DNA of 36,054 nt, taken from the IMG/VR virus record IMGVR_UViG_3300037311_000137, positions 1-36,054 of that record; one strand, 5' to 3'. Under the pieces are notes generated by a model. The model saw only the letters and a program-made list of their open reading frames with translations. It ran no database searches and had not been told where the DNA came from. This stretch comes from a virus. The number at the start of each line of letters is the position of its first letter. Position 1 is the first letter of the stretch. This document shows, piece by piece, positions 1,900-36,054 of the stretch. The translations under genes and the position numbers were made by a program.

Positions 1900-2100
1900 C
1901 TACGCAATGTGTCTTTTTTGACTCATGCCCCTTTTGACAACCTCCCTCGCTAAAGCGAGCGGATTCCCTCTACAGGCGATGCTTGTCCGCATCGGAGAAT
2001 GTTCATAGCAGCGTTTACGTCACGATCGTGTGTCGATCCGCACTCACTGCACGTCCACTCTCTTATTCCAAGCCCTGCGATACCTTTCGGCCTCGACTCA
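1900..2100 (-). ncRNA. Putative omega-RNA (reRNA) scaffold overlapping the tnpB 3' end (limits approximate)
   Basis: A hairpin at 1943..1963 (UCC(G)CUCGC-UUUA-GCGAG-GGA on the minus-strand RNA) encloses the tnpB stop codon and is followed by GGUUGUCAAAAG. This placement is typical of TnpB guide-RNA scaffolds. Confidence 0.35.
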
Positions 2101-7625: not shown

Positions 7626-8365
7626 AAGCATACCGAAACGGAATTACTAAGACTCAGTTCGTAGCTGAGCTTAAGAAGCACCAAAAGGCAGATCGGTTTC
7701 TTCAAGGTACCTATTGGAATAATGAGGCAAATCGCGGATGTGCTGTGGGGTGCGGCATTAAGTCGATCAATGAATTAAAGCAAAAAAGATTTGGAGCCAA
7801 TAACCACGAAGCGCTTTCTGAATCACTCGGATGGCCTCTTTGGCTCGTGAGACTAGAAGACCGAATATTTGAAAATGTGTCGGTCAAACGATCAAAAACC
7901 TGGCCCGTTGAGGTTGCAGGCGCTATAAAGTCAGGCGCTAATTTAGATCAGGCACTCAACCCTATTCTGATAGAGATTCTAAAGGTTGCAGCGACGGCGG
8001 TTGAAGGAAAAGAAGACCAATATTCTAAGAAATCCTTGAGTGCAATAAAACAAGTTATCAAAGGTTTGTCTGGTAAAGGATCGTTAGACAGAGCTTCTGC
8101 TGCTGCTGCTGCTGCTGCTCGTGCTGCTGCTTATGCTGCTGCTTATGCTGATGTTCGTGCTGCTGCTGATGCTGCTCGTGCTGCTGCTTATGCTGCTGCT
8201 TATGCTGATGTTCGTGCTGCTGCTGATGCTGCTCGTGCTGCTGCTTATGCTGCTGCTTATGCTGCTGCTTGTGCTTCTTTTTCTTTTAACACCCCTGATG
8301 CTTACTCCCACGCAATGGAAACAATCGCCGACAAGGTGCTTGAGGTGTTGAGGAGCACGAAATGA
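7622..8365 (+). CDS. Protein with a globular N-domain (CAVGCG motif) and Ala-rich tandem repeats (247 aa)
   Basis: ATG at 7622 forms an ATGA overlap with the upstream ORF. The C-terminal half is RAAAYAAAYADVRAAADAA x2.6. Confidence 0.8.
   Translation: MKAYRNGITKTQFVAELKKHQKADRFLQGTYWNNEANRGCAVGCGIKSINELKQKRFGANNHEALSESLGWPLWLVRLEDRIFENVSVKRSKTWPVEVAGAIKSGANLDQALNPILIEILKVAATAVEGKEDQYSKKSLSAIKQVIKGLSGKGSLDRASAAAAAAARAAAYAAAYADVRAAADAARAAAYAAAYADVRAAADAARAAAYAAAYAAACASFSFNTPDAYSHAMETIADKVLEVLRSTK
8120..8272. repeat. 57-bp tandem repeat x2.6 (two units 100% identical)
   Basis: Units 8120-8176 and 8177-8233 are identical. A third, partial unit follows. Every Ala codon in 8094-8275 is GCT. Confidence 0.9.
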
Positions 8366-8982
8366 AAAACGAAATTGTAATCGGTGGCGTGAAATACGTG
8401 AGAGCGGATTCTGTGGAAAAAACATTAGGCGTGAATTGGTCCTATGGCGTGAATAGGTCCAATGGCGTGAATGGGTCCTATGGCGTGAATAGGTCCGATG
8501 GCGTGAATGGGTCCGATGGCGTGAATTGGTCCGATGGCGTGAATAGGTCCAATGGCGTGAATGGGTCCTATGGCGTGAATGGGTCCAATGGCGTGAATTG
8601 GTCCCATGGCGTGAATGGGTCCTATGGCGTGAATTGGTCCTATGGCGTGAACAAATCAGCTGGTGTCAATCGTTCGGTTTTTGTCAGCAATCAAAGGGCA
8701 CAAAGCCTGCTCTTTAACAAACCAGTCGATGAGTCACGCGTATCTGACGTCATGGAAAGCTTGCTTCAGCGTTTATGCGGCTGGCGTCCGAAATATAACG
8801 ACATTCACAAGCTTTATCTCGCCAATGGTTCTGACTGGAAATTGACTCCAATATCAGAGGCGAAAGAGCTGTCAAAAGAAGAAGCGTGGGCCGATATGCC
8901 AAAAGAGGCAATTGACTATCTGAAATCAATTCCCGAATTCGATGCCCAAGTGTTTTTTGAGGTTACAGGTTTAAAAGTTTAG
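8362..8982 (+). CDS. Hexapeptide-repeat protein, 14 x G-V-N-x-S-x followed by a ~100-aa C-terminal domain (206 aa)
   Basis: ATGA-coupled to the upstream gene. Fourteen consecutive 6-residue units are read from the translation. Confidence 0.8.
   Translation: MKNEIVIGGVKYVRADSVEKTLGVNWSYGVNRSNGVNGSYGVNRSDGVNGSDGVNWSDGVNRSNGVNGSYGVNGSNGVNWSHGVNGSYGVNWSYGVNKSAGVNRSVFVSNQRAQSLLFNKPVDESRVSDVMESLLQRLCGWRPKYNDIHKLYLANGSDWKLTPISEAKELSKEEAWADMPKEAIDYLKSIPEFDAQVFFEVTGLKV
8428..8679. repeat. 18-bp tandem repeat GGCGTGAATNGGTCCNAT, 12 near-identical plus 2 degenerate units
   Basis: Units listed by hand from 8428. The first 12 differ only at unit positions 10 and 16. Confidence 0.95.
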
Positions 8983-13457: not shown

Positions 13458-13490
13458 ATTAAGGTCAAAGCTTTGATCCTATAAAAAAAG

Positions 13491-13574
13491 TAGCGATGAG
13501 GGGAGTCGAACCCCCAACCTTCTCGTGCCCGTCCATGGTCTAGTCGAGACGCTCTACCCTTGAGCTACACCGCT
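13491..13574 (-). tRNA. tRNA-like gene, 84 nt, canonical acceptor/D/T arms but a 19-nt anticodon loop; identity undetermined
   Basis: Folded by hand: AGCGGUG/CAUCGCU acceptor stem, GCUC-AAGGGUA-GAGC D arm, UCUCG..CGAGA anticodon stem, AGGUU variable loop and GGGGG-UUCGACU-CCCCU T arm. No CCA is encoded, and a T7 run follows. Confidence 0.6.
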
Positions 13575-17544: not shown

Positions 17545-17871
17545 TCACGCCAAAATCACAACCGTTGCAGTGCCAGACGCATCTGACCTTAAGTTTATCA
17601 CTTGCCTTGTTGGTGTCCCTGATCCCGCATAGATCGACATCGCAACACTTGCCCTAATCAAAAAGTATCCAGACGGCACAGTCCCAAGCCCGTGTTGAAT
17701 CTCTAAATCTGTGTTTGCCACAAACGTCACGTCAATGATTCTAGCCCTAAAGTTGTCCGATAACGTCAATGAATTGACTACAGTCTTTAGGTTATCAAGC
17801 GCGTTTTGAATCCACTTCTTTGCAACCGAATACTCCGCTTGCTCTGTAATGTTTGGGACGTCTGCCTTCAT
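17545..17871 (-). CDS. Small structural protein (108 aa)
   Basis: Track ORF with a 1-nt stop/start overlap with the upstream gene. Confidence 0.7.
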   Translation of the reverse strand: MKADVPNITEQAEYSVAKKWIQNALDNLKTVVNSLTLSDNFRARIIDVTFVANTDLEIQHGLGTVPSGYFLIRASVAMSIYAGSGTPTRQVINLRSDASGTATVVILA

Positions 17872-19739
17872 TACACAGCCCTCTGGAATCTGTACTCAAT
17901 CGTGTAGCCGTAAAACAAAAATGGGTTTGTGCTACTCGCTTGCTTCGTTGTGACTTGATAGCTCTTTGCTGGAATCCCAAAGTCGATACGCGTTTGAAAC
18001 GTCGCCTGAAAGATCGTGCGATTAATTACAATTGTCGAACTATCGTAATTTGACCTCATGTCAAGATCAATGCTCTGAGTGGCAGCGATAGGCTCAACGT
18101 TTGTGTAATGCCTTCTAAAGAGCTTTTCTACACTCTGTCCGAGAGGCGCAAACCAAGGGCTTTCAACAACACACGTAATCGCACGCCCGTTGTCGGCCAT
18201 GAAGCTTGAGGACCACACGTCAAATGAGCCTGTGTATCCTCCGCTAAAAACCCTGATTTTATCCTGATTTTGCCTTGCTCTAAACAAGGTCGAAGCATCC
18301 ACGCCGTCGTAAGTGGTCCAAGCGCCCACAAAGTAGTCGTAGGCCAAAATCAAGTTATTGATGGTTGCGCCATCCACAGGAATCGCAAACCACACTTCAT
18401 TAATGTCTTTGTAGTGCACGGCAGTTGCCTTGTCTCGTGCCGCATTGATGTTCATGCGCTGGAATATAGGCTCAATGGGCTCAGACACAAGCTGCACACC
18501 CGCGCCATCCCACTCTACGATTCCCTCTACATCTAACCACCAAAGCCTGTTTTCGAACGTGACAATCGCTTGGTTTGAGAGTGCGCCACAATCCGCAGAC
18601 CTTTGTCTCAAAAAGAAGTTTGCAGGATCTTGTCCAGATAACTCATGAAATGAGCGCTCCTTAAACAAAAACAAAGAATCTCGAAATGCCTTGGCACCCC
18701 TAAGCACATCGCCGTCTTCAGTCCTCACTTCAAAGAAATACTCAGGCTGCACGTTTTCCGCTTGCCCAATCTCTGAGAAGTACACAATTGAGGTCGCACT
18801 CAGCATGAAAAGCTGGTTGTTGTAAATCTCAAGATACTTAGGCGTGATGCACGTAAATCCACTTGGAGCGGCTGGGAAAAACACGCCGCTGTTAAAATTA
18901 ATGCGTGCCGAGTGAATTATTCCATTCACATAAGATGCAGCTGCCGACTGAGTTGTGTTTGTATAATAAGCGCCATCTAATATTAAAGACGCAAAGGCAT
19001 TAAAAACACCAACAGCCAAGGCGTCTGTGTTGCTTACCCCAGACCTATAAAACACAAACTGCCTTACGTCGCCAATGGACGTGACATTAGTAAAACCAAC
19101 AAACTCAAAGCTCCCAAATGTTGCGGTGTTTACGGTAAACTCTTGATTTTGTATGAGAAAAAACACAGACCCATCTGGTTTTGTTGCGGCTATTCGAAAC
19201 ACGTAGTTTCCATTAGCAAGACTTCCTCCGCCGACTGTACTGAGTGAAAGCCCCACCGAAAAAGAATATCCAGGATTACAAAGCCCCCAGTAATTAATGG
19301 TCGCACCAAAAAACGTTTGGCCACCGCCACCCGTCGTAAACCCAGTGAGTCTGAACTGAAACCCAAAAAAGCCTTGCCCGTTTGCAGACCAAAGCTGACC
19401 GTTTAAGGGAGCAAAGTCATAATAAGACGTTTGTCCGTTTGATAGAATAATGCTCAAGCCTTGGTTTGAACTATCGACCGATCGAAAGACGCCACTCGTT
19501 CCAAACACCAAGAACTGACTTGAACCAGTCTCCCATTCGTATGCTGAACCAATAGGACCCAACAAAGAGTTACCCGCGTAAAAGGTTGTGCCCTCGCGCT
19601 TTTGAAGTGCTCCAGGTCGCTGGAAGTTTACGTTCTTTAAATCCCGAAACTCCATTGGACCATTCACGTACACAGACGCCTTGGCATTAATGCCTTTGAT
19701 CATCGCGTACTGTTCGGACTTCATTTTCTCGTAGGCCAT
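17871..19739 (-). CDS. Putative tail tubular B / nozzle-like protein (622 aa)
   Basis: The size and its position directly after a ~220-aa adaptor-like gene mirror the gp11/gp12 pair of T7-type tails. There is no motif-level proof. Confidence 0.75.
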   Translation of the reverse strand: MAYEKMKSEQYAMIKGINAKASVYVNGPMEFRDLKNVNFQRPGALQKREGTTFYAGNSLLGPIGSAYEWETGSSQFLVFGTSGVFRSVDSSNQGLSIILSNGQTSYYDFAPLNGQLWSANGQGFFGFQFRLTGFTTGGGGQTFFGATINYWGLCNPGYSFSVGLSLSTVGGGSLANGNYVFRIAATKPDGSVFFLIQNQEFTVNTATFGSFEFVGFTNVTSIGDVRQFVFYRSGVSNTDALAVGVFNAFASLILDGAYYTNTTQSAAASYVNGIIHSARINFNSGVFFPAAPSGFTCITPKYLEIYNNQLFMLSATSIVYFSEIGQAENVQPEYFFEVRTEDGDVLRGAKAFRDSLFLFKERSFHELSGQDPANFFLRQRSADCGALSNQAIVTFENRLWWLDVEGIVEWDGAGVQLVSEPIEPIFQRMNINAARDKATAVHYKDINEVWFAIPVDGATINNLILAYDYFVGAWTTYDGVDASTLFRARQNQDKIRVFSGGYTGSFDVWSSSFMADNGRAITCVVESPWFAPLGQSVEKLFRRHYTNVEPIAATQSIDLDMRSNYDSSTIVINRTIFQATFQTRIDFGIPAKSYQVTTKQASSTNPFLFYGYTIEYRFQRAV

Positions 19740-20407
19740 CAGTAGTAATAACCTCCGCTGTCGCCGTAGTCTTCAGTTACAACCACCTCACGCGGACCAT
19801 CTTGATGGCGCTCAATTGAGTCTCGATCGACCTCGTCCTCATACTGCTTCATTTTCTTAAGCAGTATCTCACTCATTCGACCGTCTTTTAGAAATCCATC
19901 CTCACACGCGTAAAGCGCAATAAGCTCATGGTATTGAAGAGGAGCATCGGGCTCATCAATGTCCTCATCCATTGGGCTTACCTTGTAAGTGTAATAAAGC
20001 CTGATTTTGTAGGAGTTTGAATCAGAGGCAGGATAAACTTGGATTCGGTTTTTCCTAATCGTGTAGCGCGCTGGTGGGCCTAAAAGTGTAGAGAGCAAAT
20101 CCTGTTGGTTCAATGTCACAAACGTCAGTGGACGCCTTTGCTCTTGGGTCGTGGCATAACCTGATATAATAAGCTCAAGCCTTTGGATCTTTCGAAAGTC
20201 ATCAGGGAGCACATACTCACGCTGACCTCGAACAGTGTCCGTTACCACACACTTTGTGTAATACCTTTCGCCTGAGCCTATGAGCTTGCGCTGTAATCTC
20301 TCAAGACCGTTATTCAACCAAAGGTTGACCTGAGTCTCAGAGAAATATCCGAAACTCAAGTCATCCAACCAGTAACTTACTAACGCTTTAAGCTCTCCAC
20401 GGGTCAT
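19739..20407 (-). CDS. Putative head-tail adaptor / tail tubular A-like protein (222 aa)
   Basis: Position and size support the call, and it is coupled (TGATG) to the nozzle-like gene. Confidence 0.75.
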   Translation of the reverse strand: MTRGELKALVSYWLDDLSFGYFSETQVNLWLNNGLERLQRKLIGSGERYYTKCVVTDTVRGQREYVLPDDFRKIQRLELIISGYATTQEQRRPLTFVTLNQQDLLSTLLGPPARYTIRKNRIQVYPASDSNSYKIRLYYTYKVSPMDEDIDEPDAPLQYHELIALYACEDGFLKDGRMSEILLKKMKQYEDEVDRDSIERHQDGPREVVVTEDYGDSGGYYY

Positions 20408-20422
20408 CCTTGACCTCCTATA

Positions 20423-20617
20423 TTAAAAACACTCTTCAATATTGGCAGGAATCTCTACAGACCAGGTTGTTGTGATGTTTTCACATCCTGGTCCCCATAT
20501 GCCCGCACAAGGCCAAATGAAGCCAAAGGTCAAAAGACCCAAACCCTCGACCGTATTGTTTCCGACAAACCCCTCATCAAGAAGCGCTTGCCCGTTTACC
20601 GTCACATCGAAATTCAT
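20423..20617 (-). CDS. Hypothetical small protein (64 aa)
   Basis: Track ORF overlapping the glycosyltransferase 3' end by 41 nt. Confidence 0.45.
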   Translation of the reverse strand: MNFDVTVNGQALLDEGFVGNNTVEGLGLLTFGFIWPCAGIWGPGCENITTTWSVEIPANIEECF

Positions 20618-22802
20618 GCAGCTCCTTTGCTTTCCCTAGCCATTCCTCGGCTACGCGTTCCCAAGAGTGATGCTCAAGATCCATCTTAACACGTGCATAG
20701 GCCTTTTCTCGAATGCGAGCCTCAACAATGTCAGCCCAAGGACCCACATCTTTTTCCTCCTCAGCATCCAAGGTCAAAAGATCCGCACACCCAGCGTCAA
20801 CAAAGGGCTTGAGCGTGTCTTGTAAACCCGCTGTAGCCTTTGCGATTGGATAGACTTTGCTTGCAAGCATCTCTAACGCCGTGATGCAGAATGTCTCAAG
20901 GAAGCGCGTTGGATAGAGCCAGTATTGCTTTGTTGCTAAAGCTTCCCTCAGTACCGATTGCTTCACCCCACCGTGATACTTCACCCAAGGTCTAGCCCGC
21001 ATCATGTCCATCAAGCGCTGAGCCTGTGCTTGCCTTCCATACGCTCCAAAGTGCTCAAGACCATAAAACACATCAAGTGTTGCATTTATGCCACGCTTCC
21101 TCACCTCATCAAGCACAAGCATCGTAAACTCAAGTCCACGGTCAGGGCTTGAAGACCATACAAAGCTATGCTCCTCTTTTTTATCCAAGTCAGGCTCTGG
21201 AAAGAATTGAGACAAGATCCCATTTCTTGTAACCCACACCTTGTCATCTGGAATTGCCACCTGAGACTGAATGAACTTCTTTTGCCATCCAGATAAGACC
21301 GCAATCACATCATAAGTCTCAGTCTGCTCCATGCCCTGAATCAAGATGTCATGACTCCAAGCAATGGTAGGCGCGTCCGTGATCTTGTTGTTGTGCCTCC
21401 ACGCAATATGAAGGTATGGCTTGTTTGTGGCCATGTAATCCGCTGTGACTTGAGCCGGAGCGTACACAACCCCGTCTTCCGCAACCTTTTGAGCTTTAAC
21501 ATTCCCAAACACAATGACTTGTCTGTGGGGTTCCTTTTTCTTAATCCAATGCGCAAGCCAAATAGCAGCGGTTTCGCTTCCACCTGTGAGCTTCTGGAAG
21601 TAAGAATCATAATCCCAATCATGCCAGCCCATGCCAGGCACACACGTGATCACGATGTCATCACACTCTTTTGCGGTCTTGTAAGCCGTCTGCAAATACT
21701 CAATGCGTGACAATTCTTGTTCTATTTGAGGAGACTGCATTGCAAAGTCTTGTTTACCTTGCTCAAGATAGGCTCTCGCTCTCGCGAAATCTCCAAGTGT
21801 CATGTAGATCTGAATAAGCTTTTCAGTCGGATAAGGACCGTACACTAAAGGATTTGAGAATATCGCGCTCATGTGCTGTTGCTGTGGCATGACACACATT
21901 CGAGCTGCTTCATAAAACGGTATCGCATCATGGAAGCGATTCTGAGACGCGTAGGCATCTCCAATCATCACATGAAACTCAGCCCTGGTCGGTGCAAGCT
22001 GCAATCCCATATGAGCGACGTCAATCGCCCGTGCGGGTTGATTACTCATTGCATAGGCCTGAGCCATGAATTGAAGCGCCATCGTTCTATCGTGGCCCTC
22101 AAGGCGTCTGTCAGCAGAGGCAAGCTTAAGCTCTTGAATGGCGTCTACATGCTTGCCATTCTCAAAAAGCTCTTTTCCGTAGTAGTAGCGCATGCGTGCG
22201 TCAAGCTTTTCGCCAGACTTAACCTTGTCCTCAATGATGGAAAGGTTTCGACTTCTATCTCCTGCTAAATCAGCTTCGGTGCGCTTGTGTACGATTTGCC
22301 AAGCAGGACTAAATTGAACAATCGGCGCTTTTGTGAGCCCCGGCTTTGCTACAATTCCTTCGTGGATAAAATACTTCCACTGAAAACGTCCATCGTTCTT
22401 AATGATGCGCTCTCTCGTAAACACACACGTTGGTTGACCTTGTGCGTTTGTGGCATACCAGTAATTTGCAAGCCACATGTCCGCTTCACTTAGCATCTCA
22501 TCCCTAAACGCAATAAAGCGCTCACGGCTTGATAGCACGTCATCGCCATCCATCCACATGATGTAATCAGTCTTTGGGTGAGAGAACGCAAAGTTACGTG
22601 CTTTTGCAAAGTCATCACACCACTCGAAGTGATGGACGATACAGCCTAAGGGTTCAGCCACCTGAACCGTGTCATCCTCTGAACCTGTGTCTGTAATGTG
22701 AATCTCGTCAAAACATCCTTCAATTGACTTCAATAACTCAGGCAAATGATGTGCTTCATTACGCACAATCATTGCCAAAGCGATGGACGGGCGCTTTTGC
22801 AT
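20577..22802 (-). CDS. Tri-domain glycosyltransferase: N-terminal GT2 (GT-A), central TPR repeats, C-terminal GT4-like (GT-B) (741 aa)
   Basis: GT2 domain: IALAMIVRNEAHHL...ITDTGSEDDT...FAKARNFAF...WMDGDDVL. TPR-like helices: YYYGKELFENGKHVDAIQELKLA and YASQNRFHDAIPFYEAA. GT4 domain: LTGGSETAAIWLA and the ExxxxxxxE motif ETFCITALEML. ATG at 22802 has an AAGGAG upstream. Confidence 0.88.
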   Translation of the reverse strand: MQKRPSIALAMIVRNEAHHLPELLKSIEGCFDEIHITDTGSEDDTVQVAEPLGCIVHHFEWCDDFAKARNFAFSHPKTDYIMWMDGDDVLSSRERFIAFRDEMLSEADMWLANYWYATNAQGQPTCVFTRERIIKNDGRFQWKYFIHEGIVAKPGLTKAPIVQFSPAWQIVHKRTEADLAGDRSRNLSIIEDKVKSGEKLDARMRYYYGKELFENGKHVDAIQELKLASADRRLEGHDRTMALQFMAQAYAMSNQPARAIDVAHMGLQLAPTRAEFHVMIGDAYASQNRFHDAIPFYEAARMCVMPQQQHMSAIFSNPLVYGPYPTEKLIQIYMTLGDFARARAYLEQGKQDFAMQSPQIEQELSRIEYLQTAYKTAKECDDIVITCVPGMGWHDWDYDSYFQKLTGGSETAAIWLAHWIKKKEPHRQVIVFGNVKAQKVAEDGVVYAPAQVTADYMATNKPYLHIAWRHNNKITDAPTIAWSHDILIQGMEQTETYDVIAVLSGWQKKFIQSQVAIPDDKVWVTRNGILSQFFPEPDLDKKEEHSFVWSSSPDRGLEFTMLVLDEVRKRGINATLDVFYGLEHFGAYGRQAQAQRLMDMMRARPWVKYHGGVKQSVLREALATKQYWLYPTRFLETFCITALEMLASKVYPIAKATAGLQDTLKPFVDAGCADLLTLDAEEEKDVGPWADIVEARIREKAYARVKMDLEHHSWERVAEEWLGKAKELHEFRCDGKRASAS

Positions 22803-22809
22803 GTGATGC

Positions 22810-23286
22810 TTACTCCTTGGCGACACTTGTTTGAGTGTTTGTCAGAGTCTTTTCACGTATCAGCTCAGTGCCGCCTCTCGCATAGATACTCCAAAGACCT
22901 GAGTTTTTATTGAAGCTAGCATCACCTTCTTGGAATTCAAGGTTACGTTTTGCAAACCCCATAAGAGTTGTGGGGTCTACAGCCGTGTCACCAAAGGAAT
23001 CAGTCACAACACCGACGCGTTGATCGGTTACTTGCAGTGGGTCAAGAACACCTACGATGTAACGGTCAGAGTCTGCAAGCCCCGCTCCACCATCCATTTG
23101 CCACAAGATGCTTTGTGTGGGCCCGTACTCAAATCGGTAAAGACCTGAGCCTGCTGGCGTCTCTGTAATTCCAGGTGCTGTAATCGCACTCACACCATTG
23201 ATTGCAAAGATCGTGAGCGTAGGCGTAAGCCCCGTGTTGTCCGCTGGGTTTCCACTTCCAAAGCGTGCGTAATAAAATTTACTCAT
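22810..23286 (-). CDS. Structural hypothetical protein (158 aa)
   Basis: Track ORF overlapping the upstream gene by 8 nt. Confidence 0.75.
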   Translation of the reverse strand: MSKFYYARFGSGNPADNTGLTPTLTIFAINGVSAITAPGITETPAGSGLYRFEYGPTQSILWQMDGGAGLADSDRYIVGVLDPLQVTDQRVGVVTDSFGDTAVDPTTLMGFAKRNLEFQEGDASFNKNSGLWSIYARGGTELIREKTLTNTQTSVAKE

Positions 23287-25822
23287 TTCTTGTGTCTCCT
23301 AAAAATCTAACTTGAAACCGGCTATATAAATCGGGTTGAGTTGCAGCCGCGGGTTGAATGCTTGCTGAAATTCCTGTTCGAGCGACCCCGATTCTTTCAC
23401 CAGCCTTTAAAAATACATTTGCATGATGCCCCGTAACAACGCCCGCGGCAGCACGAGAGCCAACCCCAAACCACAAGCTTGCACCAAGTCCTTGTGAGCT
23501 TCCGTTGCCTGCCGCAATCTTTGTAAATATAGACTCCCATGTTGGAGATGCCGCCCCGGTGTCCCAATCTACAACCGAATAAAACCCGGTTCGGCGCGCA
23601 ATAATCTCAATCGAGTTATTTCCAGCATTGGTGTATCCAAAAACGTGTGGGCAAGTGTAAGTTTCAAGCGTAGTCCAGCCAAACAAGGCATTTACAGGTG
23701 CCGTTGCTCTGCCCCAAAAACTAATCCACCACTCAGGGTAAACAGCTACTTTAGGCGCTTCGGTCAATCCCTTAACAGGCTGTTGGCTTGGGATAAACTT
23801 AAGCTCATCAAAGGTTCGGTAAAATTCAAGAGAGGAAACAAGGTTTGACGCCCCCGCTCCGTAGTCAAGCCGGTGATATCCTTCACTCAACAAGGTGCTT
23901 GCAACACCTCCAGGAAGAATGGTTGCAAAAGATGCACCATCTACAAACGGCACACGAGAAAAAGCTGTTTCACCCGTGCCACTAAATCGATTACCCCAAA
24001 AAGTTGTAACAATCGTGCTTGATCCCTTACCGAAAAAGGCATTTCCACCAATTGGGTTATCTCCAACCCCAAACACGTTAGGAACTTGTGCCGCCGCTAA
24101 GCGCTGATGCACGCCCATGTGAAGTCTGTTGACGGTTGCGGTCGTTCCAAGCTCTCTAAATGGAGCAAGGGTATCAATGTACGCAATTGGAGCTGTGATC
24201 CCATTGCTCCAGCCTTGCTCATACATAGAGATTTCACCAAAAGGGCCCTCTCCATAAAGCCTGATAATGTTCCACTGAAACGGTAGGTTTTTAACTACAA
24301 CAGTCTTTTCACCCACAAACAAAGCGTCGTTACAAAGAATTCCGTTTACTTCAATGTTTGCAGAAAACCCCGGTGCTGATGATTGGTTTTGAGACCTGCT
24401 AAGCGCAAGCGCTTGGAATCGTCCTTCAACTTGAATAAACGCAGACGCGCCACCTCTTAATCGGATTTTGTTTCCGGTTAGGTCATACGACAAAAACGTG
24501 TTGCCGTTTCCGTTTGTAATCAAGTCATTCTCAAGTGCCATGCCCGTAAAAGACACGGCCCATCTCATTTGTGGGTCCCAAAAGTGTTGCTGCACCTGAA
24601 GGGTAGGACCAAAGAAGGCACACGTTGCGAATTGCTCGTCTTTACCCCAATTGATTGTGTCCATCCATCGGAGCTGACCTTGATATGCAGACGCAGGGCC
24701 AGAAGCTCCCGTTTCCCATAGTCTGTAAACCGTAAAGGTCACACCTGAGTATGGCACGGCATTTCTAAGTGTTACGTCGTCTCCAGCAACCGATACAACA
24801 GAGTTATAAAAAGGAGTGGCACCCGCTCCGTTATCAAGAAGCAAACCATCACCGAGCTTAAAGTTTGGTCCGTCTCCAATGTTAAGCGTCAGAACGGTGG
24901 CACCCGCTCCAGGCACAGTACCGTTACTCATGAAGCTTGATGCTCCAATTGAGAGGTAAGTAATTCCATTTCCTGCCACATAAAACACAGACCTAAACCC
25001 AAAGCTATTTCCAGGGCTAGTAAGTGGTGCCGCAATGGTTGCTCCGGGCACTGCAATTTCTAGTCCGTTTCTATTAAACGAACCCGGATAAAACGCTATC
25101 GGATCGCTAAACCCTGTGTGCTCTAGTATTGAGCCATTAATCCCAAATTGTCGCTCAGGTGAGTCTGTTTGTCCTTGAACCGAAAGATTGACGGTGTGAA
25201 TTCCAAACGCCGCTTGAGACAAACCAAAGTAAGGTAAATACTTTTGAACCTGGTTGTTGTTTAAGTTTGCGGTTCCAATAATTCCAGTGGTTGCAGGAGG
25301 GAAAAAACTCTCCCCACCGTCTCTTGTGATTGTAAACTTTGTTGGGTTTCCATTTATGGGTTGATACAAAAACCCAGCGTTTCGACCCACAAACGAAACG
25401 TCAGCGCTCCAAAAAGGAAGCGGACTATCGCTGTTTCCTGTAAAATGCTTGTATTGGTTAAAATACCAGGTCTGAGCACCTGGTAAAAGCTGATACAAAA
25501 ACCCACGACTTGAGGTCACAAACGCCTTAAGCTTGTGTGGGTTTCCATGAAACTCTAGCTCATAGGTGGGTGTCTCGTTTTTCCAGTAAGCAGAATCAAT
25601 CAAATACGCGTTCTTTACAAATACAGTCTGTGGACCGTATGCGGGCATGGCGTCGTTTGCAAAGAATAGATCGTACGGGTTTGTGTCAGGAGTGCTAGAC
25701 AACCCTACGTTGTCGTTTGCGGGTATGGCTATGTTGTTAAACGCACGTGCAATGGAAGCGTTTCCTGCCGCACCTGAAGAGCCACCGCCACCCGCACTTG
25801 ATCTATACAGAAACTCACTCAT
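23279..25822 (-). CDS. Large virion protein, putative tail fibre/spike (847 aa)
   Basis: Largest ORF in the genome. It has a Gly/Ser-rich N-terminus, beta-rich composition and one Asp-box-like TRDGGESF. SD AAAGGGG upstream. The function is inferred. Confidence 0.8.
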   Translation of the reverse strand: MSEFLYRSSAGGGGSSGAAGNASIARAFNNIAIPANDNVGLSSTPDTNPYDLFFANDAMPAYGPQTVFVKNAYLIDSAYWKNETPTYELEFHGNPHKLKAFVTSSRGFLYQLLPGAQTWYFNQYKHFTGNSDSPLPFWSADVSFVGRNAGFLYQPINGNPTKFTITRDGGESFFPPATTGIIGTANLNNNQVQKYLPYFGLSQAAFGIHTVNLSVQGQTDSPERQFGINGSILEHTGFSDPIAFYPGSFNRNGLEIAVPGATIAAPLTSPGNSFGFRSVFYVAGNGITYLSIGASSFMSNGTVPGAGATVLTLNIGDGPNFKLGDGLLLDNGAGATPFYNSVVSVAGDDVTLRNAVPYSGVTFTVYRLWETGASGPASAYQGQLRWMDTINWGKDEQFATCAFFGPTLQVQQHFWDPQMRWAVSFTGMALENDLITNGNGNTFLSYDLTGNKIRLRGGASAFIQVEGRFQALALSRSQNQSSAPGFSANIEVNGILCNDALFVGEKTVVVKNLPFQWNIIRLYGEGPFGEISMYEQGWSNGITAPIAYIDTLAPFRELGTTATVNRLHMGVHQRLAAAQVPNVFGVGDNPIGGNAFFGKGSSTIVTTFWGNRFSGTGETAFSRVPFVDGASFATILPGGVASTLLSEGYHRLDYGAGASNLVSSLEFYRTFDELKFIPSQQPVKGLTEAPKVAVYPEWWISFWGRATAPVNALFGWTTLETYTCPHVFGYTNAGNNSIEIIARRTGFYSVVDWDTGAASPTWESIFTKIAAGNGSSQGLGASLWFGVGSRAAAGVVTGHHANVFLKAGERIGVARTGISASIQPAAATQPDLYSRFQVRFLGDTRNE

Positions 25823-31463: not shown

Positions 31464-31800
31464 GTAGAACCTCTTCCATTGATTTACCAAGGTTTGCTTG
31501 AATTTTTTCCTTGTCGCCTTTTCTGCACACGTAAACCGCTGGGTTTCCGTAAGTAAAGAACCCACCTGGCTTAAGTCCACGCCTGTTGAAGTAGTTTACC
31601 ACGTCCTCATCGACTTCAAGCCACTGCTCAGGGTCTTCACCTGAGTTGATAGCCACTTGAGCCGCAAAAGCTCTATCTTGAAACTCACGGATCTTTTCTG
31701 CGATTCCAGTGTAATGTGCATCTCGCGTCATTTCGGGTTGTTTTACTTCCATAATTTCTTTAGGCGGTCTGCCTCTCCTTTTTGTTTCAGTCATATTCAT
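31429..31800 (-). CDS. AT-hook-containing protein (123 aa, KRRGRPPK)
   Basis: Track ORF overlapping the terL-C 3' end by 14 nt. Confidence 0.65.
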   Translation of the reverse strand: MNMTETKRRGRPPKEIMEVKQPEMTRDAHYTGIAEKIREFQDRAFAAQVAINSGEDPEQWLEVDEDVVNYFNRRGLKPGGFFTYGNPAVYVCRKGDKEKIQANLGKSMEEVLHGHSKLDSSAY

Positions 31801-32593
31801 CTAAGTTTTCAGAGTTTCGTTTTTTAATCAACTGTTCGATTGCCCACTTCTCGTAGTTTGCGTTGTGTGGTGAGTGTGGTCTTGGTGTTTGCGGCACCGC
31901 TCCAATTTCAGGATATTGTACGATGTCCTCGATTGAGGCGAGTGCATCCATTAAGTCATCGTGTGCAGCGCGTGGGAAATCATCGTATTCGGATTTTAAG
32001 TGCTCAAAGTCTTCCATCATGTAAATGCGTCCAAACTCAAAGCGTGGGACTAAGCCTTCGATGCGTGCTTCTTTGGTTTGCTTGCCTCGCTTGATGCCTA
32101 CAAGAGGTGGAAGTGTGAGTCTGCGCTTTGATTCCTCTCTCACAAAGTATTCGATTGATTCTTGGAACACTTGAGACTCGTACCCAATCACCATGGGCTT
32201 AATCTTTTGATGCACCTCAAAGATCTTTGACACAATCTCGGTTGGGGTGAGTCTATAGCGTTGAGCAACTCTTACGTACCAGTTGGTGTTAGCGTCCACA
32301 GAGACCACCACAAGGGCCGTGTAGTCGTGTTGCTCTTCTTGACCTATGGCTGGGTCCAAGAACGCAAACGTGTTTGTGGGCATTCCTGGAGGCGGTCCGG
32401 GGGATATTCTCCACCATTCGGGCTTAAACTTTCGAAGCTCATCTGGAATGACTCGGTTTAGGTACTGGTTTGTAAACTTGTAAGACCCAAGCTCGCGCTT
32501 TAACTCATCAAGCTTTTCTTTTGAAAGCTTCTGAGGGAATAGAAGCGACCCATCAGGGCGTATGGCTTGCTCGTAAACAACGTCCCACTTCAT
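31787..32593 (-). CDS. terL: Terminase large subunit, C-terminal part (lid region plus RNaseH-like nuclease domain, 268 aa)
   Basis: FTNQYLNRVIP, FAFLDPA (nuclease Asp) and AAHDDLMDALA. The ATG directly abuts the TAA of the inserted gene. Confidence 0.88.
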   Translation of the reverse strand: MKWDVVYEQAIRPDGSLLFPQKLSKEKLDELKRELGSYKFTNQYLNRVIPDELRKFKPEWWRISPGPPPGMPTNTFAFLDPAIGQEEQHDYTALVVVSVDANTNWYVRVAQRYRLTPTEIVSKIFEVHQKIKPMVIGYESQVFQESIEYFVREESKRRLTLPPLVGIKRGKQTKEARIEGLVPRFEFGRIYMMEDFEHLKSEYDDFPRAAHDDLMDALASIEDIVQYPEIGAVPQTPRPHSPHNANYEKWAIEQLIKKRNSENLDEYD

Positions 32594-32917
32594 TTAAGAA
32601 GACTTAAGCGACATGACTTGTGCGACTACGGTTGCGCCAATTCCCGCAATGTAGAACGGCGCAGGGCCTAAGAAGTCAAGGCGTTCAGCGGTTTTGACGA
32701 TGTAGAACTGGTTTGCAGTGAAAGCAGCCGCAAGTTGTGCAGCAGATAGGGTCTGACCCGCTGGAACCCCGATAATGATTAAGGTGCCACCTGATACGCG
32801 AGCCACAACTCTGTCAGCAACAAAGGCGCTTGAGCCTATCAGTTGTGCGTTTGCAGCCCCTGCCACAAGCGTGTATTGTTGTGCAGTGATCGAACCCGTG
32901 CGTAGTCCTTCAATCAT
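32594..32917 (-). CDS. Ala/Gly-rich 107-aa protein nested between the two terL halves
   Basis: Open frame fills the whole insert, with an ATGA overlap to terL-N and a TAA|ATG abutment to terL-C. Confidence 0.65.
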   Translation of the reverse strand: MIEGLRTGSITAQQYTLVAGAANAQLIGSSAFVADRVVARVSGGTLIIIGVPAGQTLSAAQLAAAFTANQFYIVKTAERLDFLGPAPFYIAGIGATVVAQVMSLKSS

Positions 32918-33636
32918 TTGAGTCCCCCTTCAGTAAGCCCTAAAGAAATCTTATCACACTCATCGATTTCATTTGCAATGATGTGCCCAATTACGTCATC
33001 AATAGCGTATCTAGTTCCACACACAACGTAAATATCCGACCCATCTAGTATGGCCTTATTGTACTGGTAATGGTCAACTACTTTGGTTCTGCCCTCTTTT
33101 GAGCGTGAATTGTTGTTTGAATTGAGGTCATCCGAAATGATGACGTCGTAATGTTGACCAACTTTCACGGTGTTTACTCCACCTGCCGTGATGGATGCTT
33201 CCTTCCGTGGTGCTGATCTAAGAGAGAGTGTAATCTCTCCTTCCCCCCAAGTCGAGCCTTTTAAGTTTGGAAAGAACATTTGCATGATGGGGGATTCTGC
33301 GTGTGCTTTGATCTCTCGAATGAAGTTCTTTGAGTTAGAGTAAATTTCCGAGTCAATGAGTATGGCTTCGTTTGGGTTTTTGAATAGAAGCCTCCATAGA
33401 GGGTATGCAACACAGACAAGTGAGCTTTTGAATGTTCCACGTGGAAGCACGATGAGCTTTCGTTTGGTGTTACTTTCAAGTGCTTTCGTGATTTTGAGAT
33501 GAGTGCTTGGTTGTAGGTCTTTGTAGCCTAGAGCTTGTTTGGCGAATGTGAAGAGGGATCTAGACCAACGGTCACGAATAAGCTCTTGTAGAGCGTCTGT
33601 TTGCTCTTCAATTGTGAAGTGTTCCAGTCCGGTCAC
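32914..33636 (-). CDS. terL: Terminase large subunit, N-terminal ATPase part (240 aa)
   Basis: Walker A-like LPRGTFKSS, Walker B YDVIISDD and coupling motif CGTRY. Confidence 0.88.
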   Translation of the reverse strand: MTGLEHFTIEEQTDALQELIRDRWSRSLFTFAKQALGYKDLQPSTHLKITKALESNTKRKLIVLPRGTFKSSLVCVAYPLWRLLFKNPNEAILIDSEIYSNSKNFIREIKAHAESPIMQMFFPNLKGSTWGEGEITLSLRSAPRKEASITAGGVNTVKVGQHYDVIISDDLNSNNNSRSKEGRTKVVDHYQYNKAILDGSDIYVVCGTRYAIDDVIGHIIANEIDECDKISLGLTEGGLK

Positions 33637-33641
33637 AGACC

Positions 33642-34115
33642 TTAATCTTGGTCTGAAACGTCTTTCGACTCAACCTCAATTGAGTTCATGAGTAGGCTTT
33701 TAAGCATTTGGAAGCGCTCTTCAGCGTCTGGCGCGTTTTGTGTGACGTTTGCGTCAACCTGAACGCGTGCGAGTTTCGGGTATGAAAACTCCATGAGGTA
33801 CAAGAATATTTCGATTGTGCGGAAGGGGTCTTTTTTCCACATGGAGTGCTCTTCGATCTTTTGAAGGATGTACTCAGGGACTGGAATGTTGAGAGACGTT
33901 TCAATGATTTCACGTGCGATACGCTTGGGGGTCATGACGCGTGTGGGTTTAATGGAGTTGTGGCCGCCCTTGTTTGGGTGTGTTTGTCTCACTTGTGGCT
34001 TTTCAATTGCGTATTGGCGGCCTTTGGCGCGGTTGTCTAGGAGTGAATACGAGGTTTCCATTTTAGCGTCTGTGTCTTGACGTCCTGTTCCGCCTCCGTG
34101 CTTTTTATCCGCCAT
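33642..34115 (-). CDS. Putative terminase small subunit (157 aa)
   Basis: Position immediately upstream of terL, with a basic N-terminus. No motif-level support. Confidence 0.6.
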   Translation of the reverse strand: MADKKHGGGTGRQDTDAKMETSYSLLDNRAKGRQYAIEKPQVRQTHPNKGGHNSIKPTRVMTPKRIAREIIETSLNIPVPEYILQKIEEHSMWKKDPFRTIEIFLYLMEFSYPKLARVQVDANVTQNAPDAEERFQMLKSLLMNSIEVESKDVSDQD

Positions 34116-34917
34116 TGATTTGGTCTCCTAAGCGTTTCAGCTCCGCACACATATCGAGGTAGCTACTCGGTGTGCCGATGTCATAGATTTCGGCGTGATC
34201 CTCAAGATAGGTAGGTTGCACACCCACTTGAGAGAGTGCCCATGAGAGGTCAATCTCGCCTGCTTCGTTTGTTGGGGACTGGACTAGGTACTCTCTAATG
34301 TTTTTGTGCAGAAGGTATCGACCACGGACTGCAAGCCCGCTTGCGAGACCCTTTGGCTTTTCTGTAACCTTGTAAAGCGCGTGGGTCTTGGATTCGCGGT
34401 CTAGGTCTAACTGTAAGATACCATATCGCTCAGGTTCATACACGTGCCTACAAAGCACGAAGGCACAGTCCTTTTTGTGATACACCCGGTCAGCTGGTTT
34501 CATGATGTAAGGTAATTTACGGTCGCTCTTAATAACAATTTCGTCCGGAAGTGTTATTAAGAAGTGGTCGCTATTAACATTTTTCATTCCAGTGAGTATT
34601 GCGTGCCCTAAACCTAAGGGTTCGGGTTGGACAATGGTTGTGTAGTTTGAGACGCCTGCAATCTTGAGCGCATGAAAGTAGGATGGGTTTTGAAGGGGTT
34701 GATTTAAGACAGGGTCACGTGGAGCTTGTGGCACGACTAGGGTTACGTGTGGGGTTTTTGTGGGCTCAAGGGAGCGTGCGATTTCAAGCGCTTCCATGAC
34801 GACAACTGAGAGGGCTGGAAGGTTATTGACGGGCAGGAGTGCCTTTGAGAGGCCCGGCACTTCAGACCATGGCGACCAACGTGTTGCGCGTCCTGCTAAA
34901 GGGATGATGATATCCAT
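34105..34917 (-). CDS. GalU-like sugar-1-phosphate nucleotidyltransferase (UTP-glucose-1-phosphate uridylyltransferase-like, 270 aa)
   Basis: IIPLAGRATRW...SKALLPV (the GxGTR..K signature region), LGLGHAILTG, FLITLPDEIV, RYGILQ and VTEKPKG...VRGRYLL parallel GalU motifs. Confidence 0.8.
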   Translation of the reverse strand: MDIIIPLAGRATRWSPWSEVPGLSKALLPVNNLPALSVVVMEALEIARSLEPTKTPHVTLVVPQAPRDPVLNQPLQNPSYFHALKIAGVSNYTTIVQPEPLGLGHAILTGMKNVNSDHFLITLPDEIVIKSDRKLPYIMKPADRVYHKKDCAFVLCRHVYEPERYGILQLDLDRESKTHALYKVTEKPKGLASGLAVRGRYLLHKNIREYLVQSPTNEAGEIDLSWALSQVGVQPTYLEDHAEIYDIGTPSSYLDMCAELKRLGDQINGG

Positions 34918-35930: not shown

Positions 35931-36054
35931 CGTGCAGGTGTCGGTGCGTTCACTTGGTACTTAAAACAGGCCATGTCTTAAAACCACGTCGAACCGTTTT
36001 CATGAATATTAAGACTTTTAACGATTGTCAAAGATTATTCGTTTGAGATTACTG
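35931..36054. repeat. Right copy of the 124-bp direct terminal repeat
   Basis: Identical to 1..124. Confidence 0.95.

Follow-up and report, generated by a model that had tools for sequence, protein, structure and literature searches.

The window analysed here is the complete genome of a phage (36 kb; 36,054 nucleotides, IMG/VR record IMGVR_UViG_3300037311_000137). A single open reading frame on its minus strand (20577..22802) encodes a 741-aa glycosyltransferase with a GT-A, a TPR and a GT-B part (hereafter the transferase), which was recognized from the ORF and its translation, from Pfam and PHROG matches, and from an AlphaFold2 model. The ORF starts with an ATG at 22802 and ends with a stop codon at 20577-20579. 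An AAGGAG ribosome-binding site (22813..22818, minus strand) was read from the sequence 10 nt 5' of this ATG, within the last codons of the preceding gene, which encodes a 158-aa protein. These two genes are separated by 7 nt, and the 3' end of the transferase gene is overlapped by 41 nt by the gene for a 64-aa protein. The preliminary description had reported a single 741-aa ORF that is packed into a structural operon, and both statements agree with this minus-strand run of genes. Promoter-like and terminator-like sites between positions 17000 and 29500 were not commoner than in shuffled sequence. The transferase is soluble, with no transmembrane segment (top 19-residue Kyte-Doolittle mean of 1.03).

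The 158-aa protein (p158; 22810..23286, minus strand) is a candidate acceptor or partner of the transferase, as judged by its AlphaFold2 model and the conservation of its ORF in the family. In the model, residues 1-85 form an Ig-like beta-sandwich, followed by a C-terminal domain and a Thr-rich tail of low confidence; the pLDDT exceeds 90 in the N-terminal domain and is 45 in the last block. The tail has the consensus KTLTNTTTxATK[ST], and Ser and Thr account for 38% of the last 16 residues vs 24% of the whole protein. No Pfam, PHROG or PDB family matched p158, and Foldseek returned weak Ig/filamin matches only (E ~0.2). Upstream of p158 lies a gene for an 847-aa Gly/Ser/Thr/Asn-rich protein (23279..25822, minus strand), fibre-like by its composition, for which no Pfam or PHROG family match was found. 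On the other side of the transferase, the 64-aa protein (20423..20617, minus strand; taken from the ORF list) is acidic and contains no Lys or Arg. It is followed by a SU10-type head-to-tail adaptor of 222 aa (19739..20407, minus strand; PF24175 SU10_adaptor, E 4.2e-21) and then by a 622-aa nozzle-like virion protein (17871..19739, minus strand; phrog_3287 'virion structural protein', E 9.5e-15). The adaptor and virion structural matches among these neighbours bear out the earlier placement of the transferase gene in a virion module. The capsid protein had no Ser/Thr-rich extension.

Domains of the transferase and its characterised relatives

The N-terminal part of the transferase (residues 1-195; 22218..22802, minus strand) is a GT-A catalytic domain of the GT2 type, as indicated by PF00535, by homology to GmaR and SunS, and by invariant alignment columns. 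PF00535 matched residues 11-91 with 52 bits (cut-off 23.3; E 1e-13). The central part (residues 196-376; 21675..22217, minus strand) is a TPR or helical-repeat linker. Four TPR families exceeded their gathering thresholds here (TPR_14, 34.1 vs 23.5 bits; TPR_2, 32.4 vs 27; TPR_8, 27.2 vs 25.7; TPR_19, 25.5 vs 25), the matches spanning residues 212-300, and the AlphaFold2 model is all-helical, with paired helices, over residues 176-376. The C-terminal part (residues 377-741; 20580..21674, minus strand) is a GT-B catalytic domain that resembles GT4. PF00534 did not reach its threshold in the window protein (19.8 bits vs a cut-off of 26.4; E 6e-4), and a precomputed PF00534 match is present in many transferase homologues. 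The GT-B assignment therefore rests on phrog_2170, which matched residues 429-726 (E 1.8e-15), on Foldseek matches to GT4 enzymes (target TM 0.63-0.66 for BshA, PimA, a Rickettsia glycosyltransferase and a mannosyltransferase), and on the invariant GGSE, RH, SxDRG and E-x7-E motifs. The domain thus has the two-Rossmann GT-B fold together with the E-x7-E motif.

All motifs quoted in the preliminary description were found in the protein: VRNEAHHL at residues 13-20, DTGSEDDT at 38-45, DGDD at 85-88, GGSETAAIWLA at 407-417 and ETFCITALEML at 636-646, the last of which contains E636-x7-E644. Invariant columns were computed on 34 homologues that share only 42-47% identity. In the GT-A domain, these columns comprised D38-T-G-S41, D43, D85/D87/D88 of DGDD and H147-E-G149; in the GT-B domain, they comprised G407-G-S-E410, R469-H470, S552/D554-R-G556 and E636-x7-E644. 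Judged by these alignments, both catalytic domains are under purifying selection. The mean pairwise identity was 0.49 for GT-A, 0.43 for GT-B and 0.35 for the TPR part, which diverges fastest. The AlphaFold2 model of the 741-aa protein had a mean pLDDT of 90.6, but its pTM was 0.64, so the arrangement of the domains relative to each other is uncertain. The GT2, TPR and GT4-like parts proposed earlier are each supported by the profile searches, with PF00534 itself below threshold, and the architecture and the conserved catalytic motifs are direct observations.

For residues 1-230, every one of the closest characterised relatives is a protein or peptide glycosyltransferase in which a GT-A domain is followed by helical repeats. 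GmaR matched residues 2-195 with E values of 3e-20 (single sequence of a solved structure) and 5e-30 (profile), and the identity was ~31% over 190 residues for the copies in the phage database. For SunS, the E values were 4e-9 (single sequence) and 3e-23 (profile), and the ThuS profile gave 3e-16. SunS and ThuS are glycocin S-glycosyltransferases; SunS modifies a Cys of a ribosomal peptide. SunS and ThuS (PDB 7msn, 7msp, 7msk) also ranked first in the Foldseek search (E 6e-19 to 1.5e-17 over 375-382 columns), where the match covers GT-A and the next helical domain; they share 16-18% identity with the transferase and have no second catalytic domain. The SunS family (TIGR04195) was the best named NCBIfam model, but the score of 36.6 bits was far from the equivalog cut-off of 350, so the transferase is a homologue of SunS and not a member of this family.

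GmaR of Listeria monocytogenes (PDB 22ao) is a flagellin beta-O-GlcNAc transferase and an anti-repressor of MogR (PMC9638930). As in the transferase, its GT-A domain leads directly into TPRs, and the two proteins share DTGSxDxT, WxxDFxxARN, DxD and HE motifs, with DGDD of the transferase aligned to DADE of GmaR. In contrast to the transferase, which ends in GT-B, GmaR ends in a linker and the anti-repressor domain. It is a cytoplasmic bacterial regulator whose acceptor, flagellin, is later assembled into an extracellular filament, and flagellin has no counterpart in the phage.

The order TPR then GT-B is that of the protein O-glycosyltransferases OGT and SPINDLY (GT41) and FlmG. SPY and OGT followed SunS and ThuS in the Foldseek ranking (E 1e-14 to 1e-12 over ~620-770 columns), with an RMSD of 18-22 Å, so the parts are shared but their arrangement is not. 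A GT-A domain is lacking in OGT, and whereas OGT and SPY belong to GT41, the GT-B domain of the transferase resembles GT4 (BshA, PimA, MshA) and carries E-x7-E. No GT41 Pfam family was found among matches at E up to 1, and no HMW1C-type entry among the best 50 Foldseek matches. The argument of the preliminary description that proteins are the typical substrates of TPR-linked glycosyltransferases accords with these comparisons, given that GmaR, SunS and ThuS are the nearest characterised enzymes and that TPR plus GT-B superposes on SPY and OGT. This homology to protein glycosyltransferases was observed directly, but GT2 and GT4 are very large families, in which a similarity of 16-31% leaves the acceptor undefined. 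Solved structures are also a biased sample, and closer relatives, lipid-linked or acting on polysaccharides, could exist among proteins of unsolved structure. The N-terminal half carries a PHROG label, 'beta-1,4-glycosyltransferase', that is inherited from a lipooligosaccharide annotation.

Conservation of the transferase and of its genetic surroundings

More than 120 full-length homologues with 42-47% identity were present among the matches listed. In a library of representatives at 50% identity, 32 were full-length at E 1.5e-232 or better, and 4775 shared transferase modules at E 1e-30 or better. The transferase was present, at the same place, in all 38 loci that were fetched via the capsid protein and extend 7 kb or more downstream (capsid-anchored loci). 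The gene order portal, scaffold, capsid, p167, p142, (fibre), p158, transferase, (p64), adaptor, nozzle recurred in the transferase-anchored relatives, and in every relative examined the gene kept its place among structural genes, between those of the head and those of the tail. Pairwise identity of the transferase correlated with that of the capsid protein (r 0.58), the adaptor (r 0.74) and p158 (r 0.56) across 42 genomes (Mantel p 0.001). Its syntenic position was seen directly, and by these comparisons the transferase is a vertically inherited core morphogenesis gene and not a moron. A podophage from Manatee Spring, unrelated to this group, encodes a 26%-identical tri-domain homologue just after its capsid gene, followed by two further transferases and methyltransferases.

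The transferase always abuts a fibre-like Ser/Thr/Asn-rich gene. An ORF of the p158 family ended a median of 42 nt 5' of the transferase in 90 of the 99 locus entries and was absent upstream in the other nine; in one locus without p158 (L024), a 544-aa Ig-repeat protein follows the transferase instead. Of 59 transferase-anchored loci, only 20 showed a detectable 847-aa protein, which was absent or replaced in others. Its variability and frequent absence rule it out as the universal substrate, although it is a possible, non-universal acceptor. The earlier suggestion that these neighbours are the substrates therefore fails for the 847-aa protein as a universal acceptor, while p158 retains its adjacency; together, the nine entries without p158 and the variability of the 847-aa protein indicate that no single neighbour is a universal acceptor. 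The 64-aa protein had tblastn matches in 30 relatives (~50% identity), and a gene is called at its place in two loci (L002 and L003). The nozzle-like protein was syntenic in 49 relatives.

A GalU-like ORF (34105..34917, minus strand) adjoins the terminase ATPase gene in the window. Its identity as a genuine sugar-1-phosphate nucleotidyltransferase, as described earlier, was upheld by its match to the broader NTP_transferase family PF00483 (48.6 bits vs 21.2; E 1e-12) and by solved GalU structures (E ~1e-16). The score for the galU equivalog TIGR01099 was 83 bits, below the cut-off of 326.8, yet the best solved relatives are GalU, which leaves the sugar specificity uncertain. tblastn found no match to this gene in 137 loci, including 34 that extend to the terminase ATPase gene, and the scan of viral contigs found no GalU-like gene. 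Among 5.8 billion proteins, one close homologue (62% identity) was found, vs >120 for the transferase. The proposal of a self-contained two-step system, in which the GalU-like enzyme supplies the activated sugar, could thus not be sustained. On its distribution, the GalU-like gene is accessory to the source genome rather than a conserved partner of the transferase, and the transferase family works without it.

Candidate function in virion-protein glycosylation

Because its nearest studied relatives glycosylate proteins, the transferase most likely coats a virion protein with sugar. In its full form, this explanation describes an enzyme that is expressed late, acts in the cytoplasm and attaches first one sugar and then another to a virion protein, with the tail of the adjacent p158 or fibre proteins as candidate acceptors. 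We give this explanation an even chance of being correct. We infer the existence of the glycan, its acceptor protein, its sugars and the order in which GT-A and GT-B act. The position of the gene in a late operon suggests this function but does not prove it.

According to this scheme, the soluble enzyme would be made late, along with the virion proteins, and would glycosylate one or more of them in the cytoplasm before or during assembly. The central TPRs would bind the acceptor protein. Such binding was detected by two-hybrid assay for the TPR part of FlmG (PMC7591256), and a substrate-binding role of the GmaR TPRs has been proposed by analogy with OGT (PMC9638930). The GmaR/SunS-like GT-A domain, with its DxD-type DGDD and presumably a metal, would then take the first sugar from the host's nucleotide-sugar pool and attach it to Ser/Thr (or Cys), and the GT4-like GT-B domain, with its E-x7-E motif, would add the second. 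This would yield a disaccharide or, with alternation of the two domains, a short repeat. Surface-exposed Ser/Thr-rich fibre-like neighbours would be the likeliest acceptors, with the Thr-rich disordered C-terminal tail of p158 as the first candidate. The likely benefit would be an altered virion surface that affects stability, adsorption specificity or masking.

In mycobacteriophages, capsid and tail-tube subunits receive glycans at their C-termini from phage-encoded transferases (Freeman et al. 2023, as relayed in PMC12619734 and PMC12363180), a location that would parallel the C-terminal Thr-rich tail of p158. For Che8, Corndog and Myrna, these two sources present modification of virion proteins by phage transferases as shown (PMC12363180, PMC12619734), whereas here it is proposed. 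The hosts differ, and the mycobacteriophages concerned are siphoviruses or myoviruses. Their virion transferases are separate single-domain proteins, and we know of no TPR fusion among them. In large DNA viruses and uncultured phages, GT2 and TPR modules fused to further catalytic domains recur. The BFVD matches (E 2e-30 to 1e-15) included GT2-TPR proteins fused to DXD transferases or FkbM methyltransferases in CeV, HaV, Indivirus, pithoviruses and 'uncultured Caudovirales'; they differ from the transferase in partner domains and length, and the phage examples have no known function. Another multi-domain viral glycosyltransferase is A064R of chlorovirus PBCV-1, which builds the glycan of a capsid protein.

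The usual reading of phage glycosyltransferase genes is a different one, in which the enzyme modifies or builds a host surface polysaccharide (LPS/LOS, capsule or teichoic acid) late in infection, which could stop progeny from adsorbing to debris or block superinfection. Clusters of phage transferases have been read as diversifying surface polysaccharides (Iyer et al. 2021; PMC7824862). No families are commoner in the synthesis of O-antigen and capsule than GT2 and GT4, and an enzyme with two domains could produce a disaccharide repeat. In the relatives, PHROG and GenBank labels trace to a LOS beta-1,4-glucosyltransferase. A distant tri-domain homologue (P0285, locus L138) lies beside a sugar cassette of epimerase, aminotransferase and acetyltransferase genes, and multi-domain proteins with glycosyltransferase and TPR parts also occur in a bacterial MAG (Treponema, L062). 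However, the complete 36-kb genome yielded no flippase, polymerase, membrane anchor or other envelope gene, the transferase itself is soluble, and its nearest characterised homologues act on proteins. Envelope-modifying genes are also normally accessory and patchy, whereas this gene is universal and syntenic in a morphogenesis operon and diverges together with the capsid and adaptor genes. We consider remodelling of the host envelope unlikely; if it did occur here, it would be unusual for a gene that modifies the envelope to be fixed as a core gene of a structural operon.

Glycosylation of a host protein such as flagellin or pilin, which would shut down a receptor or motility structure during infection, is suggested by the best single homologue, GmaR, being a flagellin O-GlcNAc transferase and by the TPR-then-GT-B order of FlmG-type flagellin transferases (PMC7591256). 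Takeover genes are usually early and variable, though, and a late structural operon beside fibre genes, with strict co-inheritance, fits a virion target better, which makes a host target improbable. The location of the gene exactly at the junction of head, fibre and adaptor genes, the frequency of TPR domains in chaperones and the uncertain inter-domain arrangement of the model (pTM 0.64) would also suit an assembly factor or virion component whose transferase folds serve mainly as a scaffold or chaperone, e.g., for fibre attachment, with catalysis secondary or lost. Invariant nucleotide-sugar-binding and catalytic motifs in both domains at ~42% identity are not expected of a non-catalytic scaffold, and we regard this role as very improbable. 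Still more remote is the addition of sugars to modified bases of the phage DNA to evade restriction. DNA hypermodification is known for several families of phage transferases (Pyle et al. 2024, as cited in PMC12619734), and the genome does encode an enzyme that forms nucleotide sugars. This GalU-like gene is not conserved, however, the complete genome showed no gene for base modification (dNMP hydroxymethylase, thymidylate-synthase-like or other), the transferase gene lies in the structural and not the replication module, and the TPRs and the homology to GmaR and SunS indicate protein substrates.

Glycosylation of virion proteins by the transferase would have implications beyond this genome. 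To our knowledge, actinobacteriophages are as yet the only phages for which virion glycosylation by phage-encoded enzymes has been demonstrated, and glycosylation of phage particles has been shown only in a few mycobacteriophages, where it alters recognition by antibodies. The broadest form of the preferred reading is tentative and somewhat doubtful: an obligate, vertically inherited virion-glycosylation enzyme in the core morphogenesis module of a widespread clade of uncultured podophages of ~36-43 kb, in which the TPRs clamp a fibre or decoration protein and GT-A and GT-B build a two-sugar or repeating O-glycan. If true, it would be the first phage-encoded virion glycosylation outside actinobacteriophages and the first to use substrate targeting in the style of OGT and GmaR, and glycan-coated virions would be common among environmental phages. 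It would bear on how specifically virions adsorb, how stable the particles are and how host defences and grazers recognize them, as well as on phage engineering. The transferase is also a compact, soluble candidate tool that could serve as a TPR-targeted two-step protein glycosyltransferase. If the family does glycosylate virion proteins, glycan coats would be a conserved, built-in trait of a large lineage of environmental phages, a reading that the scale of the family (>120 homologues, 32 and 4775 library representatives) supports.

Domain architecture and characterised relatives

The transferase is encoded by a single 741-aa ORF on the minus strand (ATG at 22802, stop codon at 20577-20579), and the sequence AAGGAG at 22813-22818 (minus) precedes the ATG. 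The five motifs quoted in the preliminary description were all present, at residues 13-20, 38-45, 85-88, 407-417, and 636-646. Pfam placed Glycos_transf_2 at the N-terminus (E 1e-13) and several TPR families at residues 212-300 over threshold, whereas Glycos_transf_1 at residues 581-668 remained under threshold (19.8 bits vs 26.4). The PHROG scan divided the protein cleanly in two, with phrog_13126 covering residues 6-371 (E 2e-49) and phrog_2170 covering residues 429-726 (E 2e-15). The transferase was aligned with 34 homologues (42-47% identity to the query; one at 80%). The residues invariant among these were D38-T-G-S, D43, D85/D87/D88, and H147-E-G in the first catalytic domain, and G407-G-S-E, R469-H, S552/D554-R-G, and E636...E644 in the second. 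The AlphaFold2 model built from this alignment consisted of a GT-A sandwich (to residue ~175), helical pairs (176-376), and two Rossmann-like halves (383-710). Its mean pLDDT was 90.6 and its pTM 0.64; therefore, the domains are reliable and their mutual arrangement is not. Both catalytic domains, on which the preliminary description had staked its reading, are thus supported by profiles, motifs, and the model. No hydrophobic segment was found in the transferase, which rules out a membrane enzyme. A gene-fusion or assembly artefact was also ruled out, because hundreds of independent contigs show the same architecture at 710-770 aa.

The best solved relative by sequence was GmaR, the flagellin O-GlcNAc transferase of Listeria (E 3e-20; profile 5e-30), with which the motifs DTGSxDxT, DFxxARN, DxD, and HE aligned. 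GmaR was followed by SunS and ThuS, the glycocin peptide S-glycosyltransferases (profile E 3e-23 and 3e-16). Among named NCBIfam models, the SunS family matched best, at 36.6 bits and far under its 350-bit equivalog cut-off. SunS/ThuS also headed the structure search, with E 6e-19 over 376 columns covering the GT-A and helical domains. Next came SPINDLY and OGT (E 1e-14 to 1e-12, ~650 columns, RMSD ~20 Å), and then the GT4 enzymes BshA, PimA, and MshA, whose matches were confined to the C-terminal domain (target TM 0.63-0.66). The transferase falls outside both the SunS equivalog and GT41. In GmaR, too, a GT domain precedes TPR (PMC9638930), and in FlmG, where TPR precedes GT-B, the TPR part binds the flagellin substrate (PMC7591256). 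By analogy with the layout of GmaR and the role of the FlmG TPR, both ends of the transferase would work in the manner of a protein glycosyltransferase targeted by TPR.

Fusions of GT2-TPR modules with further catalytic domains are found repeatedly in BFVD, among uncultured phages as well as giant viruses. The library of 50%-identity representatives contained 4775 matching proteins at E ≤1e-30, 32 of them full-length (706-772 aa) representatives at E ≤1.5e-232, and its matches included many multi-domain proteins of 1000-2700 aa.

Genome setting and inheritance

An exact direct terminal repeat of 124 bp (1-124 = 35931-36054) bounds the window, which therefore represents a complete genome with ~35.9 kb of unique sequence; the repeat reflects either a circular assembly or terminal redundancy. 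The minus-strand genes follow the order Erf, GalU-like, terminase ATPase, 107-aa ORF, terminase nuclease, portal, scaffold, capsid, p167, p142, 847-aa fibre-like protein (23279-25822), p158 (22810-23286), transferase, p64 (20423-20617), SU10-type adaptor (PF24175, E 4e-21), 622-aa nozzle-like protein (17871-19739), and Gly/Ala-rich internal proteins, where p167, p142, p158, and p64 are named by their length in residues. Between p158 and the start of the transferase gene lie 7 nt, and the transferase gene shares 41 nt with p64. Over the interval 17-29.5 kb, sites resembling promoters or terminators were no more numerous than expected from shuffled sequence. The 64-aa p64 (minus) is acidic, with three Cys and no Lys or Arg, and is kept at ~50% identity in the same position in 30 relatives.

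More than 120 full-length homologues (709-766 aa) were found in a search of 5.8 billion proteins, mostly on 30-43-kb contigs. The gene order was the same in 56 IMG/VR loci fetched via the transferase and in two contigs from other sources. An independent check with 80 loci fetched via the capsid found the transferase in all 38 that extended at least 7 kb downstream. Among 42 non-identical genomes, the pairwise identities of the transferase correlated with those of the capsid (r 0.58), adaptor (r 0.74), and p158 (r 0.56; Mantel p 0.001 each), values somewhat inflated by a few near-identical genome pairs among the 42. Mean pairwise identities in these genomes were 0.42 for the transferase, 0.43 for the adaptor, and 0.44 for p158; within the transferase, the TPR part diverged fastest (0.35, vs 0.49 for GT-A and 0.43 for GT-B). 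Judged from the synteny, the presence in the capsid-fetched loci, and this co-divergence, the transferase gene behaves like a core gene of morphogenesis passed on by vertical descent, not like a moron. Recent acquisition as a moron was ruled out by a GC content like that of the neighbouring genes and by co-divergence with them.

No GenBank phage matched the 23-kb structural half in a megablast search; the lineage has no close relative in culture. The capsid and portal proteins nearest to its own are those of actinobacterial podophages of Arthrobacter, Microbacterium, and Cellulosimicrobium (22-29% identity), and none of these podophages was among the 22 GenBank phage records matching the transferase. 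WhiB-type actinophage markers, sought as a clue to the host, were not found. A scan of 185,579 species genomes returned three loci only, namely two 25-34-kb MAG contigs, which are probably mis-binned phage, and one partial match in Treponema; it gave no prophage or host clue.

An unrelated podophage from Manatee Spring (locus L001, MW202524.1, 1656-11978) carries a 26%-identical tri-domain homologue directly after its capsid gene. This homologue heads a cluster of two more glycosyltransferases, a hyaluronan-synthase-like gene, and two methyltransferases, with tail genes downstream. On a 40-kb contig (L138, 10001-22256), a distant tri-domain homologue of 751 aa (P0285) is followed by an epimerase/dehydratase, a DegT aminotransferase, an acetyltransferase, a second epimerase, and a further GT2 with a faint TPR-like (ANAPC3) match. 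Taken together, they resemble a full cassette for amino-sugar donor synthesis and transfer; the PHROG scan of this context did not assign it to phage. At the Treponema MAG locus (L062, 9791-17133), a GT2-GT2-TPR protein of 763 aa and a GT8-TPR-GT8/GT24-TPR protein of 944 aa are encoded together with a radical SAM enzyme and a further GT2; no flagellar genes lie nearby. Multi-domain GT-plus-TPR proteins therefore cluster in bacteria too.

Elsewhere in the genome, the large terminase subunit is encoded by two minus-strand genes, the ATPase (32914-33636) and the nuclease (31787-32593), separated by the 107-aa Ala/Gly-rich ORF (32594-32917). This ORF had no family match and was found in only 3 loci. 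The terminase halves lay 234-4916 bp apart, in different frames or separated by stop codons, in 34 of the 34 loci with both (L063-L134), and the gene pair looks like the site of a clade-wide variable "cargo slot." A 352-aa transposase-family protein (1950-3008, minus; phrog_506, E 6e-72) is encoded inside this small, lytic-looking phage genome and, judged from its ORF length, may be of the TnpB / IS200-IS605 OrfB type. At 13490-13574 (minus), ARAGORN reported a tRNA-like gene whose anticodon has four bases (agac) and to which no amino acid could be assigned; the structural operon lies on one side of it and the lysis/resolvase genes on the other.

Candidate acceptors and the GalU-like gene

In 90 of 99 locus entries, an ORF of the p158 family precedes the transferase (median gap 42 nt); the other 9 lack it. 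In the p158 model, residues 1-85 form an Ig-like sandwich predicted with confidence, whereas the C-terminal domain is weaker and the tail disordered. Foldseek returned generic Ig matches only, and neither a profile search of solved structures nor a PHROG scan of 38 members gave anything significant; p158 was also unlike the protein encoded before the homologue in the Manatee Spring podophage. The C-terminal tail of the family is Thr-rich (consensus KTLTNTTTxATK[ST]), Ser and Thr making up 38% of the last 16 residues vs 24% overall, and the corresponding peptide in this genome is KTLTNTQTSVAKE. Mycobacteriophage capsid and tail-tube proteins are reported to have glycosylation sites at their C-termini (PMC12619734). 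The Thr-rich tail of p158 is reminiscent of these sites; to name it the best acceptor candidate is only a guess. In five loci (L013, L018, L030, L036, and L052), the p158 homologues contain a Gly-rich, fibre-like insert of 30-100 residues with Gly-x-Ser/Thr-Leu-type repeats between the Ig-like and C-terminal domains, which suggests that p158 may be a short fibre with variable shaft length.

Other arrangements occur next to the transferase. In locus L024, it comes directly after p142, and then a 544-aa Ser/Thr/Asn-rich Ig-repeat protein follows. Of 59 loci, just 20 had a detectable 847-aa protein. What stays constant is a fibre-like gene next to the transferase, and no single protein fills that place. 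In the early region, on the opposite strand (8362-8982, plus), a 206-aa protein carries ~17 tandem hexapeptides GVN[GRWK]S[YDNH], each with an N-x-S sequon. Its PHROG matches, to collagen-like tail-fibre families, are repeat-driven, and the stretches fetched from relatives do not reach its gene.

The GalU-like protein (34105-34917) is a real nucleotidyltransferase and may raise donor supply in this phage. A tblastn search of 137 loci, including 34 that extend to the neighbouring terminase ATPase gene, found no copy of its gene; a viral-contig scan gave no relative, and the 5.8-billion-protein collection held only one close homologue. The pairing of this gene with the transferase in a self-contained two-step system, as had been proposed, is therefore unsupported, because the GalU-like gene is not a conserved partner.

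Function of the transferase

The transferase most likely acts as a TPR-targeted bifunctional enzyme that glycosylates a virion surface protein in two steps, an assignment that we consider about as apt to be right as wrong. The tri-domain enzyme within the virion module, as noted in the preliminary description, is confirmed, and its interpretation is partly supported, with the exception of the dedicated donor gene. Phage transferases are usually taken to remodel the host envelope (PMC7824862); this reading, a less likely alternative here, fits poorly with a soluble enzyme whose core gene lies inside the structural operon of a complete genome without any other envelope gene. The resemblance to GmaR suggests glycosylation of a host protein, e.g., flagellin, yet the position and inheritance of the gene do not support such a substrate. 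A non-catalytic role in assembly is contradicted by the invariance of the active-site motifs, and against the rival of DNA glycosylation stands the genome itself, in which no base-modification gene was found.

Phage-encoded virion glycosylation and viral multi-domain transferases are already known kinds. The family described here, to which TPR-targeted glycosylation of virion proteins is tentatively assigned, is uncharacterised yet widespread, and it is directly testable by co-expression in E. coli.
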